Source: Thermoproteota archaeon (lineage in GTDB: Archaea; Korarchaeota; Korarchaeia; Korarchaeales; Korarchaeaceae). From it: a DNA stretch of 38,523 nucleotides. Location: contig JAVCBY010000035.1 of the NCBI GenBank assembly GCA_037917625.1, forward strand, positions 1 through 38,523, in the 5' to 3' direction. A program made the translations under genes and the position numbers. The notes below the pieces were generated by a model. It did no database searches. It was not told the DNA's origin and saw nothing but the letters and a program-made list of their open reading frames with translations. Positions 9,261 through 14,375 of this stretch are shown here, piece after piece (position 1 is the stretch's first letter; the number at the start of each line of letters is the position of its first letter).

Positions 9261-9347
9261 GCCGGGGTGGCCGAGATCGGACCAAGGTGCCCGCCTTGAG
9301 AGCGGGTGGCCCTCCGGGCCGCGAGGGTTCAAATCCCTCCCCCGGCG
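9261..9347 (+). tRNA. tRNA-Ser (anticodon TGA), no intron, CCA not encoded
   Basis: Acceptor stem GCCGGGG/CCCCGGC plus discriminator G. Anticodon arm CCCGC-CTTGAGA-GCGGG. Long variable arm GGCCC-TCC-GGGCC. T arm GAGGG-TTCAAAT-CCCTC. Confidence 0.96.
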
Positions 9348-9385
9348 CTCATTCACTTTTTCACTAATTATGGTGGATTTCTCAT

Positions 9386-10633
9386 TCATACTTGAACTTT
9401 GGGGAGGAGCTCGGGGGCATTCTTCATGATCCCTATCCTGGGCTTATCGAACCTCCTCAACTCCTTATCTATTGCCTCTTGTAGCTCACCGTACCACTCG
9501 AACCCCATGGATTTAGCCTCATCCTCCCTTATCCCCTCCGATACTATGACTACTCTTATCCTCGACCTGATCTTCGACCACACCATCGAATTCGCTGCTC
9601 CTATGAGGTCCTTAACGAGTCCTGATCTCGCTCTCTTATCTATCTCCTCCGGTGGCAGTCCTGCGAGTTCTATCACCTCAGGATGAGTTCTAGCAACTCC
9701 TTCAGGGCATGGTGTCGCGAGGATCAGGGTACCCCCATCCCTGAGCACCATATCAGCTGGATAGAGGGATTTATGCGCTTGCCAAAACTCTATATCAGCT
9801 GGATAGCTACTCGCTATTACAACATCGAGATTCCCGGGGGATTCCACCTCATATATCCTCCTGGACTCCTTTACAGCTTCCTTGAATACTTCCCTCACTC
9901 CTCCAGCCCCTATCCAAGTGGGTCTACCAATACCATCGACCACTAGATCAATTAAACCCCTAAGACCAGCTTTCTCCGCAACTAAGTCCATTAGATCCCT
10001 TATCTCATTCTCTTCGATTCCAAGAAAACTTCTTCTGAGCCTGGCGCTTAACATATGCATCTCTCCGACAGTTCTCTCACCAGAAACACCTGGGAGAGCT
10101 ATCTTGGAACCACCAGAGAATCCTGAGACATGATGAGGTGTAACGCAACCAATTCCTATCGAGAAATCTACCTTAGAGAGTTCCTTAGTGACTTCTATAG
10201 GGGCTCCGCTTGGCATCGTGCCCACTCTCACTTGCTTCTCCGGATCCCTGAAATCGGGTTGGATGATGTTCACTCTATCCAAAGCTTCCCCATATTTCCT
10301 CTCAAGTTCGGATTGTGTCATAGGTCTATGAGTCCCTAAGGCAGCTATTAGGGTGACTTCCCTTATGCCAATCCCTTCTAAGAAATCGAGGAGCTTGGGG
10401 AGTATGAGATGCGTGGGGGTGGGTCTCGTTATATCGTCAGCTATAATAGCTACCCTCGCTCCAGGCCTGAGGAACTTCAGATTTTTCAATGAGCTCTCAA
10501 GCTCTCCTTTGAGATCCTTAATAGGCTCTACTTCTCTCGGTTCTATATAATGGACTCTAAGACCATCGGGTAGGCTAAAATAAACCTTAGAGTTCCCGTA
10601 AGGTAACTGGAAGTCGGGCAAGCTAGCACCCAA
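9386..10633 (-). CDS. LarA-family nickel-pincer-dependent alpha-hydroxyacid racemase/epimerase
   Basis: DDITRPTP, ALGTHRPM, PHHVSGFSGGSKIALPG, FWQAHKSL, GGTLILATPCPEG. The substrate cannot be determined from sequence. Confidence 0.9.
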   Translation of the reverse strand: MGASLPDFQLPYGNSKVYFSLPDGLRVHYIEPREVEPIKDLKGELESSLKNLKFLRPGARVAIIADDITRPTPTHLILPKLLDFLEGIGIREVTLIAALGTHRPMTQSELERKYGEALDRVNIIQPDFRDPEKQVRVGTMPSGAPIEVTKELSKVDFSIGIGCVTPHHVSGFSGGSKIALPGVSGERTVGEMHMLSARLRRSFLGIEENEIRDLMDLVAEKAGLRGLIDLVVDGIGRPTWIGAGGVREVFKEAVKESRRIYEVESPGNLDVVIASSYPADIEFWQAHKSLYPADMVLRDGGTLILATPCPEGVARTHPEVIELAGLPPEEIDKRARSGLVKDLIGAANSMVWSKIRSRIRVVIVSEGIREDEAKSMGFEWYGELQEAIDKELRRFDKPRIGIMKNAPELLPKVQV

Positions 10634-11573
10634 GCAACCTGAATGCTAGCCTTATAGCGTTTACCATACTACCTTCATCAGCTAAGCATTTGCCAGCTAT
10701 ATCATAAGCTGTCCCGTGATCCACTGATGTCCTTATATAAGGGAGCCCCAGGGTGACATTGACGGCTCTATTAAAGCCCAAGAGCTTGATCGGAATATGC
10801 CCCTGATCATGATACATAGCTACAACAGCTTTGAACTCCCCCTTTATCGCTCTCAGAAATACGGTATCAGCGGGTATCGGCCCTTCAACATCGTATCCCA
10901 TATCTATGAGCTTCTCGATAGCGGGCCTTATGACTCTGATTTCCTCATCTCCGAAGAGCCCTCTCTCACCTGCATGAGGGTTCAGAGATGATACTCCTAT
11001 CTTCCCAGATTCCCCAAGCTTCTCGAGGAAGGATGAAGTTAGCTCCACAGTAATCATTATCTCCTCCTCCGTCAGGAGCCTAGGAACATCTTTTAGTGCT
11101 ACATGCGTCGTGACATGTGACACCCTCAACTCATCGAGGAAGAGCAACATCTTAGTTTTTCTGACCCCTGCTAACTCAGCTAGGAGCTCCGTGTGGCCAG
11201 TGAATTCTATGCCAGCCATGTTAACAGCTTCCTTGCTGACGGGTCCCGTAACTAGGGCTTCAGCTTTCCCCCCGAGGATCAATTCAGATGCCCTCCTTAT
11301 GCAAAGGTAAGAGTGAAGACCTCCCTCTGGCGTTGGGCCGTTACCCTCAACCCCGAAGTCATCAATATCTATAACTGGTACAGAATCCTCGAGGAGCGTG
11401 GGCTCATCCACGGGGGTGAATTCGATATCAAGGCCGCATGCCTCACATGCTCTCTTCAGGGACCTCATGCTTCCTATGACAGTTAAGGGGAGCCTTAAGC
11501 GTTTAATCGCCTTAACTAGGACTTCGGGTCCTACTCCCAATGGATCGCCTGCTGTTACTATAACCGATCCCAT
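10623..11573 (-). CDS. pdxA: PdxA-family dehydrogenase (PdxA2-type, threonate/erythronate-4-phosphate dehydrogenase-like)
   Basis: GDPLGVGPE, TGHTE, NPHAGE, MYHDQG, RTSVDHGTAYDIAGK. GGTGA SD before ATG 11573. Confidence 0.92.
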   Translation of the reverse strand: MGSVIVTAGDPLGVGPEVLVKAIKRLRLPLTVIGSMRSLKRACEACGLDIEFTPVDEPTLLEDSVPVIDIDDFGVEGNGPTPEGGLHSYLCIRRASELILGGKAEALVTGPVSKEAVNMAGIEFTGHTELLAELAGVRKTKMLLFLDELRVSHVTTHVALKDVPRLLTEEEIMITVELTSSFLEKLGESGKIGVSSLNPHAGERGLFGDEEIRVIRPAIEKLIDMGYDVEGPIPADTVFLRAIKGEFKAVVAMYHDQGHIPIKLLGFNRAVNVTLGLPYIRTSVDHGTAYDIAGKCLADEGSMVNAIRLAFRLLGC

Positions 11574-11639
11574 GGGGTTCACCTATCCTCAGCTATCGTG
11601 AGCTCGGGTCACTTATATGCTGAATGCGAAATGGGAAGT

Positions 11640-12692
11640 TCATCTCCTGACCCTCGATAGGATCCTTAACAGCGTTTCAGGGTCTCCAAAACCTCCAGCC
11701 TTTGAGATGAGAGGGGTCCCGTCCATAGGACCGCCGACGATCCATCCAGCGGCAAGCCCCTCCTCCGGGTAACTCCCTATCCTTATAGCGGAGACATCTA
11801 GCGGATCTAAAAGCCTCCTCAAAGTCTCTCCGCCGATGACCACGAGAGAACCTGGTCTTAAATCTAATAAGAGCTCGGCGATTTCCCCTATCCTGCCCAA
11901 GAAGCCTCCCAAATCGAAGGATATAGCTACATCTAATCCCTCCATGAGGCTCCTCCTCGCGAGATCTAAGGATCCGTTGACGATCACCTCTATCTTCTCA
12001 GATAACCTCTCTAATTGCTTCAATGTCACATCATTGGTTGAACCGGAGATGAAGAGTAAAGGACTATGAAGCTCAACGTAATCGGCTTTTTCACAGCCTA
12101 AGAAGTTGGAGAGCTCCATAGCTAGTCCTGCGCTCCCTCCCATCACCTTGAAGCCGCTCTCCTCTATGAGCCTGAAAGCTCGAGAGAGCTCGGATCTATC
12201 CCTCACATCCCTGAACGTCATTATGTCTCGATCTTCATCCCAGTAGCCCACTTTGAGCCTAGATGTAGCTTTCACTATCTCTAAAATGTCAGAGGAGGAT
12301 TTGGGGAGCTCTCTGACGTAATCAGTCTCCTCCAATAGCCTTCCCCTCACGTAGAGAAGGCCATCCCTGACTATCCTACCCTGCTCTGGATATGCTGGTG
12401 TGAAAGGGATCTTAACACCTATGGACTCGCATATCTCATCGAACTCAGCTCCTACATTCCCTCTCATCGTTGAATCTATCTTCTTGTACAAGTAATGCCA
12501 ATCTGAAAACCTTTTTAGAGAATCTCTCACCCTCAATCTAGCTTCATCGGGTCTCAAAAGCCTCGTATCAGTGCTTATACCTACGAAGTCCGATGATACT
12601 TCCTCTCTAAGTGCTACGACGGATCCCTCACCGAACTTACTCGTGGTATCTAGGGCACCGGTCAGGTCGTCAGCGATTATGAGGACCTTCAT
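11640..12692 (-). CDS. Four-carbon acid sugar kinase (DUF1537, DtnK/DenK-like)
   Basis: IIADDLTGALDT, YKKIDSTMRGNVGAE, PAYPEQGR, GSAGLA, GGET, SKAGGFG. Confidence 0.92.
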   Translation of the reverse strand: MKVLIIADDLTGALDTTSKFGEGSVVALREEVSSDFVGISTDTRLLRPDEARLRVRDSLKRFSDWHYLYKKIDSTMRGNVGAEFDEICESIGVKIPFTPAYPEQGRIVRDGLLYVRGRLLEETDYVRELPKSSSDILEIVKATSRLKVGYWDEDRDIMTFRDVRDRSELSRAFRLIEESGFKVMGGSAGLAMELSNFLGCEKADYVELHSPLLFISGSTNDVTLKQLERLSEKIEVIVNGSLDLARRSLMEGLDVAISFDLGGFLGRIGEIAELLLDLRPGSLVVIGGETLRRLLDPLDVSAIRIGSYPEEGLAAGWIVGGPMDGTPLISKAGGFGDPETLLRILSRVRR

Positions 12693-12713
12693 CACACCTG
12701 GATGAATGAGGGT

Positions 12714-12727
12714 TATATTTACTTTCT
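12714..12727 (-). promoter_or_regulatory. BRE/TATA promoter for the kinase-pdxA-larA operon
   Basis: The minus strand reads AGAAAG-TAAATATA about 22-35 nt upstream of the kinase start. Confidence 0.55.
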
Positions 12728-12763
12728 CCCGCTTAACTTAACAATAAAACGAGAATTTGGATC

Positions 12764-13075
12764 TCACATCAGGACTATACTTATCTTGACGTCATCCGGG
12801 AGTGTCATACCCATTATACTCCTTATATACCTCTCATCCGGGTTTGGGATGTCAATTATCCTCTTATGGATCCTCAACTCATACTTATCGTATCTATTAG
12901 TCCCCTCTCCCGATGGATTCCTGAGGGCCGTCACCCTGAGCCTCTTAGTGGGGAGGGGTATAGGCCCCTTAACCCTCACTCCCATCTTATCAGCTATCTC
13001 CTTGAACATCTTGCTTACTCTCTCTAAGCTCTCTGGATTCACGCTTACAAGTTCTATTCTGAGGATCTCAGTCAT
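12764..13075 (-). CDS. rps10: 30S ribosomal protein S10 (uS10)
   Basis: KGPIPLPTKRL, PSGEGT, YELRIHKRIIDI; directly downstream of tuf. Confidence 0.97.
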   Translation of the reverse strand: MTEILRIELVSVNPESLERVSKMFKEIADKMGVRVKGPIPLPTKRLRVTALRNPSGEGTNRYDKYELRIHKRIIDIPNPDERYIRSIMGMTLPDDVKISIVLM

Positions 13076-13103: not shown

Positions 13104-14375
13104 TCATTTCTTCTTCCTCTCCAGCGGGACTACATCCAGCACTATGCCCGCAGCTACCGTTATCCCCATGTCCCTAACAGCGAACCTCCCGAGTGGTGGG
13201 AACTCACTGTACTTCTCTATTACGAAGGGCTTGAGGGGTTCGAACTTCACTATGGCTGCATCTCCCCTCCTTATGAAGCTAGGCTTCTCCTCAAGGACCT
13301 GCCCGCTCCTCGGGTCTATCTTCTTCTCTATCGAGACCATCTTACAGGCCATGTGACCTGTATGGGCATGGATGACTGGAGTATAACCTGGGGCTATGGC
13401 TGTCGGGTGCTGTAGCACGACTATCTGAGCTGTGAACTCCTTGGCAACTGTCGGCGGGTTGTTCGGGTGACCTACGACATCTCCTCTCTTTATCTCCTTC
13501 TTATCTATTCCCTTTATGTTTATCCCTATGTTATCTCCAGGCTCGGCTTTTTCGAGCCTCTCATGGTGCATCTCTATACTCTTAACTTCAGCCGTCTTAC
13601 CCAAGGGCTCTATTACTATCGTGTCCCCTGGCTTGAGGACGCCCGTCTCCACCCTACCGACTATGACAGTACCTACGCCGGTTATCGAGAACACATCCTG
13701 GATGGGGATCCTCAGGGGCTTATCTACGGGCTTTGGCGGAGCGACGAATGTATCCAGGACCTCATAGAGAGTAGGACCATTATACCAGGGCGTATTGTTG
13801 CTCCTATTAACTACGTTGTCTCCCTGAAGGCCGCTAGTCGGTACGAAGTGTATCTTGGATGGATCATAGCCGACCCTCTTGAGGAGGTCCGAAACTTGGG
13901 CCTTTATCTCCTCATACCTCTCCTTCTTATAACCTACAGTAGGATCATCCATCTTATTTATGGCTACAGCAAGTTGATTCACTCCCAAAGTCTTTATCAG
14001 GAAGACGTGCTCTATCGTCTGGGCCTGAACCCCCTCCCCTGACTTAGCTGAGACTACTAATATAGCTGCATCCGCCTGACTAGCTCCCGTTATCATGTTC
14101 TTGACGAAGTCCCTGTGTCCAGGGGCATCTATCACTGTGATCATCTTATGCGGGGTCTCCACTTTCGTGTGGAAGAGGTCTATGGTCATTCCCCTCTCTC
14201 GCTCCTCCTTGAGTCTATCGACGACCCATGCGAATCTAGCATCTGCAGCTAGCTCCTCCGGAGGGAGCTCCTCTACGAGCTTTAAATCGTAGAAGAGCCT
14301 ACCGATTATTGTAGACTTCCCATGGTCCACATGGCCGACGAATATCAGGTTCACATGTTCCTTCTCAGGCATCAT
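13104..14375 (-). CDS. tuf: Translation elongation factor EF-1 alpha
   Basis: [53 protein letters not shown]. The start may be the second ATG at 14372. Confidence 0.99.

Follow-up and report, generated by a model that had tools for sequence, protein, structure and literature searches.

A clade of LarA-superfamily enzymes linked to DUF1537 kinases and PdxA-type dehydrogenases, with a predicted role in the use of tetronates

We found that three adjacent genes of a Korarchaeal genome encode a DUF1537-family kinase, a PdxA2-like dehydrogenase and a member of a distinct clade of the LarA superfamily, and that this clade has a functional link to DUF1537 and PdxA that extends over four phyla and three gene orders. 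The genes are in a stretch of 38,523 nucleotides (the window), which is contig C63 of G000, a metagenome-assembled genome (MAG) from a Thermoproteota archaeon of the family Korarchaeaceae (1.22 Mb in 116 contigs, 84% complete). The functional link is well supported. In addition, we lean toward the view that the trio is a module that would convert tetronates to dihydroxyacetone phosphate (DHAP), with the LarA homolog (LarAH) as a C2-epimerase of D-erythronate and D-threonate, either free or 4-phosphorylated. An earlier, sequence-only reading of the window had described three co-oriented genes, and we confirmed them as open reading frames (ORFs) on the minus strand:

11640..12692, minus strand: DUF1537-family acid-sugar kinase, compact form of 350 residues (the ORF reaches 12695, with an ATG at 12692)
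10623..11582, minus strand: PdxA2-like protein (Pfam PdxA), predicted NAD(P)-dependent 4-phospho-hydroxyacid dehydrogenase (decarboxylating)
9386..10633, minus strand: LarA-superfamily enzyme of a distinct clade (Lar_N and LarA_C), predicted nickel-pincer nucleotide (NPN)-dependent 2-hydroxyacid C2-epimerase

Association of the LarA clade with DUF1537 and PdxA

We surveyed 40 relatives of G000. Thirteen genus members had a LarAH ortholog (65-94% identity), and the order EF1a-S10-DUF1537-PdxA-LarAH-(tRNA)-S19-L2 was found at all ten genus loci with enough flanking sequence; three further genus loci end at contig ends inside the cluster. PdxA (PF04166) was present in 14 of the 41 genomes counted. 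These were exactly the genomes that have a LarAH ortholog or, in the case of G030 (another family of the phylum Thermoproteota), a 41%-identical member of the clade, and the two genes were always adjacent. Other gene orders were found farther away: LarAH-DUF1537-PdxA in G030, and LarAH-PdxA-DUF1537 at three Njordarchaeota loci. In addition, the opposite strand of one Njordarchaeota locus carries a gene of the AMP/thymidine-phosphorylase family (L063:5238-6554), ~1.4 kb 5' of the trio.

We scanned 185,579 species genomes by motif and obtained 53 loci, a sample that is skewed toward the clade because the search patterns were derived from it. The full trio was present at 11 of the 53 loci, the three Njordarchaeota loci among them, and a partial set at two. 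After leaving out two partial rows and one locus that lacked a full ORF, we made a quick maximum-likelihood tree of 51 rows. All 13 LarAHs that are adjacent to DUF1537/PdxA fell in one clade of 18 rows (approximate likelihood-ratio test support of 93), together with four rows from Chloroflexota. None of the remaining 33 rows had DUF1537 or PdxA within 8 kb.

We tested the association in a sample of 201 Chloroflexota genomes, in which a match at E≤1e-75 was taken as a member of the LarA clade. Such members were present in 15 genomes, DUF1537 in 37, and PdxA in 37. Both DUF1537 and PdxA were found in 13 of the 15 clade-bearing genomes vs 19 of the 186 others (one-sided Fisher test, 3e-10 with the seed genome and 2e-9 after its exclusion, values that overstate the significance because related genomes are not independent). 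By coordinates, LarAH, DUF1537 and PdxA were contiguous in nine of the 15. At the first four Chloroflexota loci, the DUF1537-PdxA pair was elsewhere in the genome in three, and in G045 PdxA was on a different contig. The gene neighbors of these four first-set clade members were uninformative: they were NMO-like, phosphoribosyl pyrophosphate (PRPP) synthetase, beta-CASP, peptidase and transaldolase genes. DUF1537-PdxA pairs also occur without a LarA gene of this clade, so LarA would be an optional addition to some of these pathways, which is what one would expect if an epimerase opens the route to another substrate.

The tie between LarA and the DUF1537/PdxA pair that had been drawn from the window thus held up when counted across genomes. 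It is seen in synteny within the genus, in the co-presence of PdxA and LarA, and in the other gene orders; that is, in genus relatives, G030, Njordarchaeota and Chloroflexota. The sequence-only reading had cast the module as archaeal. This part did not survive, as the trio is also in Chloroflexota.

All three genes are under purifying selection. The ratio of nonsynonymous to synonymous substitution rates (dN/dS) was 0.09-0.25 for DUF1537, 0.07-0.18 for PdxA and 0.07-0.12 for LarAH. A search of a plasmid collection with the LarAH protein gave no match above 32% identity (16 records).

Partner enzymes, active site and predicted reaction

The kinase has an N-terminal sugar-binding domain (Pfam SBD_N, 1e-30) and a C-terminal nucleotide-binding domain (NBD_C, 6.4e-12), and its matches in the Protein Data Bank (PDB) include 4xfm and 4xfr (~1e-18). 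Alignment indicated that the core motifs ADDLTGA.DT, YKK.DS..RGN.G, GSAGLA, GGET and KAGGFG are retained and that the Korarchaeal kinase is without three insertions of the 410-440-residue forms. It scored 120 bits against the NCBIfam model for D-threonate kinase (NF047819, cut-off 450) and 52 bits against that for 3-oxo-tetronate kinase (NF043035, cut-off 350). Full-length kinases that are partners of the clade scored higher against the D-threonate kinase model than against the 3-oxo-tetronate kinase model (252 vs 190 and 264 vs 184 bits), although these scores of 252-264 bits are also under the cut-off of 450.

PdxA from the window matched Pfam PdxA (1.5e-98) and passed the generic TIGR00557 model (345 bits, cut-off 290). 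It was below the cut-off of the model for D-threonate 4-phosphate dehydrogenase (NF002891, 284 vs 583 bits). Its nearest structures are the Salmonella-type PdxA2 2hi1 (2e-78) and 6e85, which was deposited as a D-threonate 4-phosphate dehydrogenase (3e-74); the E. coli-type PdxA 1ps6 ranks behind them (3e-58). The threo epimer is probably the preferred substrate of PdxA, because the two best solved relatives for which a substrate is named both act on D-threonate 4-phosphate. From the partner enzymes we infer a four-carbon (C4) substrate of the D-series.

These data also bear on a possible role in vitamin B6 metabolism. In that case, the kinase would act on 4-hydroxythreonine and PdxA would oxidize the phosphorylated product, either for synthesis of pyridoxal 5'-phosphate (PLP) or for detoxification. 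PdxA passes the generic cut-off, and the accessible part of PMC7954711, citing Thiaville 2016, states that DUF1537 members can phosphorylate 4-hydroxythreonine. However, PdxJ (PF03740) was found in none of five genomes, three of them 99% complete, making a role in synthesis dependent on deoxyxylulose 5-phosphate (DXP) unlikely, and PdxA is closest to PdxA2 and D-threonate 4-phosphate dehydrogenases, which also argues against a role in B6 metabolism. PdxS is present in G000, G012 and G016, so PLP would be made there by the DXP-independent route. In addition, LarA-type enzymes act on 2-hydroxy and not on 2-amino acids, and the third gene would have no role. We consider a B6-related function highly improbable, the least likely of the alternatives discussed here. 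Neither PdxS (PF01680) nor PdxJ was found in G015 (99% complete) or G030 (94% complete), both of which have the trio, and these two organisms may be B6 auxotrophs. We had also entertained PdxA as an enzyme like ApnO (D-apionate oxidoisomerase) that acts on unphosphorylated acids. This was dropped: the ApnO fold resembles ketol-acid reductoisomerase, and PdxA is not mentioned in the main text of PMC13753588.

The LarA homolog matched Lar_N (4.8e-45) and LarA_C (27.8 bits, cut-off 25). An AlphaFold2 model of the protein, built on an alignment of clade members (pLDDT 95.1, pTM 0.92), resembled LarA structures in Foldseek comparisons, with TM scores of 0.90 to 9eid and 0.87 to 5huq. The closest match in the PDB was Mar2 (6d6z), at 5e-40 over the full length; the match to 4nar was 1.9e-15. 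The sequence-only reading had pointed to LarA motifs in this protein. They are indeed there, and they map onto residues of Lactobacillus plantarum LarA (LarA1) in a HMMER alignment to 8ezf_B, as follows (window residue first):

D67: D72
R70: R75, carboxylate-binding
H102: H108, catalytic
H167: H174, catalytic
K177: K184, the lysine that tethers NPN
H193: H200, Ni-binding
W284: Y294
Q285: Q295, carboxylate-binding
K288: K298, carboxylate-binding

That is, the residues for catalysis, for tethering and coordination of NPN, and for binding of the carboxylate are all kept, and they are invariant across 56 aligned members of the clade.

Published models and rules did not assign a substrate. The protein was under the cut-off of all six NCBIfam models for LarA-type enzymes, including these five:

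malate racemase LarAH6 (NF052593), the best model: 249 bits, cut-off 500
malate racemase LarAH5 (NF052595): 241 bits, cut-off 462
LarA (NF033504): 200 bits, cut-off 460
LarAH10: 186 bits, cut-off 540
hexonate epimerase (NF052594): 73 bits, cut-off 500

Three further members of the clade were likewise under every one of the LarA cut-offs. Specificity rules at four LarA positions (175, 176, 358, 359) are given in the accessible part of PMC11770544 (Urdiain-Arraiza et al.): F,F,W,E/Q for lactate racemases; x,x,H/Q,K for malate racemases, with the last two at the positions of W358 and T359 in LarA1; Y,F,H/Q,T for 2-hydroxyglutarate racemases; and E,V,A,H for the gluconate 2-epimerase GntE. The window protein has H168, V169, A347 and N348 and satisfies none of these rules. 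It is nearest to GntE, with two of the four positions in common (V and A). The change of W358 to Ala and the Val and Ala in common with the gluconate 2-epimerase rule suggest an enlarged pocket that could fit a polyhydroxy side chain. The clade is set apart by H168 and H287, and its signature columns are H168, I/V169, R198, R201, H287, T316-H317, W352 and R358.

It is conceivable that the protein is an ordinary racemase of malate, lactate or another simple 2-hydroxyacid that adjoins an unrelated DUF1537/PdxA pair by chance. Its best NCBIfam and PDB matches are to malate racemases (249 bits; Mar2, 5e-40), and its homologs are publicly annotated as 'nickel-dependent lactate racemase'. Against this, the scores are far under the cut-offs (249 vs 500 and 200 vs 460), the residues H,V,A,N differ from the rules for malate and lactate racemases, and linkage to DUF1537/PdxA persists through three gene orders and four phyla. 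The same genomes also have a second LarA paralog, ~28% identical, beside a carrier of the auxin-efflux-carrier (AEC) family. Taken together, these data leave chance adjacency of a simple racemase with only a very small probability, a little above that of the B6 role.

The second paralog is present in most members of the genus. In G012 (C1:561841-563040; L123:5833-7053) it is convergent with the AEC-family transporter gene, and in G000 we found only a fragment at a contig end (C12:576-1115). This paralog is also below all of the NCBIfam LarA cut-offs, with its best score to a malate racemase model (323 vs 500). Two LarAH genes of the trio's own clade have interrupted frames. In G009 (C4:20268-21499, L045) the gene is broken into two frames that cover residues 7-338 and 333-413, and in G192 (C38:11894-13135) it has a single TAA in frame. 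Either loss of function as a pseudogene or an error in sequencing could explain these interruptions, and G009 is also among the genomes in which LarC was not found.

The trio might instead have the same architecture and act on another acid sugar. LarA would then epimerize C2 of a pentonate or hexonate (e.g., D-ribonate/D-arabinonate) or of a branched acid, and the product would be a ketose phosphate and not DHAP. Several points favor this: the kinase and the dehydrogenase are both under C4-specific equivalog cut-offs, V169 and A347 match the gluconate 2-epimerase rule, enzymes of tetronate pathways are reported to accept C5 and C6 acids (accessible part of PMC12994016), and D-ribonate is an intermediate of an archaeal ribose pathway (accessible part of PMC13753588). 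On the other side, both partners have C4 enzymes as their closest relatives among solved structures and curated models, the hexonate-epimerase model NF052594 gave just 73 bits vs 500, and the Glu and His of GntE are not present in the window protein. We think that a different acid sugar is unlikely, though it has the best chance of the alternatives.

The preferred reading, a route from tetronates to DHAP, would work as follows. The DUF1537 kinase would phosphorylate the terminal hydroxyl of the four-carbon acid sugar. The PdxA2-type enzyme would oxidize C3 of the 4-phosphotetronate, and decarboxylation would give DHAP and CO2. LarA, with its Lys-tethered NPN and His102 and His167, would remove the hydride at C2, giving a 2-oxo intermediate, and add it back on the other face, thereby interconverting D-erythronate and D-threonate, or their 4-phosphates. 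Both epimers could then be used by one kinase and dehydrogenase pair. Given the partners, D-erythronate and D-threonate are the simplest pair: they differ only at C2, a stereocenter that is lost at DHAP anyway. Proton-coupled hydride transfer in LarA enzymes is described in the accessible part of PMC11851776, and the part of PMC11770544 that we cite reports that other LarA homologs epimerize 4-deoxy-threonate/erythronate as a side activity, the only such epimerization that we found in the literature.

We infer that the free acid is the likelier of the two forms to be epimerized. In the parts of the LarA literature cited here, the substrates of characterized LarA homologs are unphosphorylated acids. 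The clade-specific H168 and H287, with R198 and R201, would also suit a phosphate.

Cofactor genes and other points that weigh against the predicted reaction

Several observations weigh against the reading of the trio as a tetronate module with an NPN-dependent epimerase, and those on the cofactor come first. The sequence-only reading had held that absence of larB, larC and larE would count against it, and the outcome was divided. No larB (NF033503), larC (TIGR00299, PF01969) or larE (TIGR00268) was found in G000, a MAG that is 84% complete; there were only weak PP-loop matches. The two closest relatives, G016 (LarA identity of 94%) and G012 (93%, on a single contig), each have a larB-larC-larE cluster. 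Flanks of the cluster in G012 match only scattered pieces of G000, and ~10 kb that includes larBCE is without a counterpart there, indicating either a deletion or an assembly gap. In G001, larB, larC and larE are within ~6 kb, and six of the ten module-bearing genomes with a completeness of 90% or more have LarC. By contrast, none of the three genes turned up in G009, G011, G014 or G015, which are 96-99% complete and keep the trio; G015 is 99% complete in two contigs. These four genomes (LarAH loci L045, L039, L036 and L038) also keep the second LarA paralog. Congeners in which larBCE were not found could be scavenging the cofactor, could have another route to NPN, or could have gaps in their MAGs.

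It is possible, for these reasons, that LarAH is not an NPN epimerase here and that it uses another cofactor or catalyzes a different hydride-shuttling or isomerization step on an intermediate of the pathway. Four congeners that are 96-99% complete keep LarAH (split in G009) with larB, larC and larE not found, and LarAH is under purifying selection in such lineages (dN/dS of 0.10 between G014 and G015). In addition, NPN chemistry beyond racemization has been reported in another fold (accessible part of PMC13524815). However, the Lys that tethers NPN, the His that binds Ni and the two catalytic His residues are invariant in 56 members of the clade, and LarC is found in most of the more complete module-bearing genomes, as noted above. 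The rest could be explained by incomplete MAGs or by cofactor taken up from outside. We therefore regard an enzyme without NPN epimerase activity as very unlikely, if slightly less so than a simple racemase placed by chance.

We also considered a variant in which the clade is a 4-phosphotetronate epimerase of a constitutive housekeeping route. Such a route, with its genes set in the ribosomal-protein/EF-1alpha region, would turn erythronate and 4-phosphoerythronate, a side product of glycolytic enzymes, into DHAP as a means of clearance or salvage. Korarchaeum-like species that keep two intact LarA homologs under purifying selection, and in which larBCE were not found, would obtain NPN from neighboring organisms in the manner of a shared vitamin. 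This is a long shot, and we hold it to be slightly more plausible than an enzyme that does without NPN.

The other points against the tetronate reading concern the partners, the substrate and the setting. Because the cut-offs for D-threonate kinase and D-threonate-4-phosphate dehydrogenase were not reached, the C4 assignment depends on nearest neighbors. At positions 347 and 348, Korarchaeal members have A,N vs S/A/G,L in other members of the clade, so the substrates of the clade are perhaps not identical. DUF1537 and PdxA were not found in G070 and G082 (two of the 15 Chloroflexota clade members) or in G041.

At Chloroflexota loci L117 (9944-11730) and L120 (9865-11526), Pfam identified genes of the FAH family (Rv2993c-like) and for an alpha/beta-hydrolase directly 5' of the trio, on the same strand, and L119 and L121 have ORFs of matching size and N-terminus at the FAH/hydrolase position. 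This hints that the trio belongs to a longer and different pathway there, possibly with a step for opening of a lactone or ester or for C-C hydrolysis. Finally, the cluster in the window includes no transporter and no tetronate-forming enzyme, and our search of sequencing runs found no RNA sequencing runs that contain the locus. Three DNA runs, labeled as hot springs metagenome or 'organism A', contain at least half of the sampled locus words.

Layout of the cluster and comparison with known systems

The trio is inserted, throughout the genus, between the EF-1alpha/S10 unit and tRNA-Ser(UGA)/S19, an unusual site for a catabolic cluster. Beyond the tRNA gene, the window ORFs include a ribosomal block (S19/L2/L23/L4/L3). 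The features around the three genes are:

13104-14375, minus strand: EF-1alpha gene, 5' of S10 (ORF)
12764..13075, minus strand: ribosomal protein S10 gene, the upstream flank (ORF)
12713..12728, minus strand: candidate element for a TFB-recognition element (BRE) and TATA box, GAGAAAGT AAATATAA, 21-36 nt 5' of the kinase ATG, seen in the sequence
11583..11639, minus strand: short spacer between kinase and pdxA with a Shine-Dalgarno-like AGGTGA (sequence)
9261..9348, plus strand: tRNA-Ser(UGA), convergent with the LarA gene (ARAGORN)

The claim that the genes have their own BRE/TATA stands in part. An A/T-rich element is present, with the TATA-like AAATATAA at 12713-12720, 21-28 nt 5' of the kinase ATG. 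The BRE/TATA-like sequence GAGAAAGTAAATATAA, at 21-36 nt before the ATG, is kept only in the two nearest, G016 and G012, of seven relatives aligned. A promoter belonging to the trio is plausible but unproven. Read-through from the EF-1alpha/S10 unit is also possible because S10, which has the same orientation, ends 68 nt before the kinase. The spacer between kinase and pdxA is consistent with a single transcript, and the three genes are probably co-transcribed.

The 11-nt overlap that had been described between pdxA and larA depends on the start that is chosen. It is there with the TTG at 10633, whereas with the TTG at 10621 the pdxA stop (10623-10625) and larA are 1 nt apart. LarA orthologs in relatives start with MPDF or MPEF, matching the TTG at 10621, which is likely to be the true start. 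The two genes are packed tightly with either one. For pdxA, the ATG at 11573 is the likely start: AGGTGA is 5 nt ahead of it, and orthologs in relatives begin with MGSV or MPMGSV.

The clade as a whole is uncharacterized. It comprises at least 481 clusters at E≤1e-60, and no curated model fits it. The tetronate reading offers a concrete and testable substrate prediction for all of it. If the prediction is true, the DUF1537/PdxA2 tetronate pathways would gain a branch with an epimerase. To our knowledge, those pathways are known only from bacteria, with separate enzymes for each epimer. Near-complete archaeal genomes that have LarA, and in which the cofactor pathway was not found, also raise the possibility of NPN exchange in hot-spring communities. 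We found nothing relevant in the literature that links LarA/DUF2088 to DUF1537, PdxA or Korarchaeum; the supplementary context tables of two papers (PMC7583248 Table S1 and those of PMC11770544) were outside this search, so an earlier mention is possible.

The systems closest to the predicted module are the pathways for D-threonate and D-erythronate that use DtnK or DenK with PdxA2, reportedly described by Zhang et al. in PNAS in 2016. As there, a DUF1537 kinase adjoins a PdxA-family dehydrogenase; PdxA of the window is nearest to PdxA2/D-threonate-4-phosphate dehydrogenase, and among kinase models the one for D-threonate kinase fits the kinase best. In contrast to those pathways, the module described here has a LarA-family gene as a constant third member, its LarA-bearing hosts belong to the archaea and to Chloroflexota, the Korarchaeal form of the kinase is ~70 residues shorter, and neither partner in the window reaches the curated equivalog cut-offs.

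Among LarA-type enzymes, Mar2/LarAH6 (6d6z, 7s91) is the best match in sequence and is alike in fold and in the residues for catalysis and NPN binding. The window protein differs in having neither Lys at the position of T359 nor His or Gln at that of W358, the hallmarks of malate racemases, in its score (NF052593, 249 vs 500) and in its genome context. L. plantarum LarA (5huq) has the same two-domain fold (TM score of 0.87) and the conserved R75, H108, H174, K184, H200, Q295 and K298, whereas its F175, F176, W358 and T359 are H, V, A and N in the window protein, the score to NF033504 is 200 vs 460, and no lar operon is adjacent to the window gene. GntE (LarAH19/20; Thermotoga maritima 4nar) is, like the predicted enzyme, a member of the LarA family that epimerizes a polyhydroxy acid at C2. 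According to the accessible part of PMC7583248, it was first predicted from a sugar-kinase context. The two have Val and Ala in common at two of the four specificity positions. They differ in that GntE has Glu and His where the window protein has His and Asn, the match to 4nar (1.9e-15) is weaker than that to Mar2, and the partners in the window point to a C4 and not a C6 acid.

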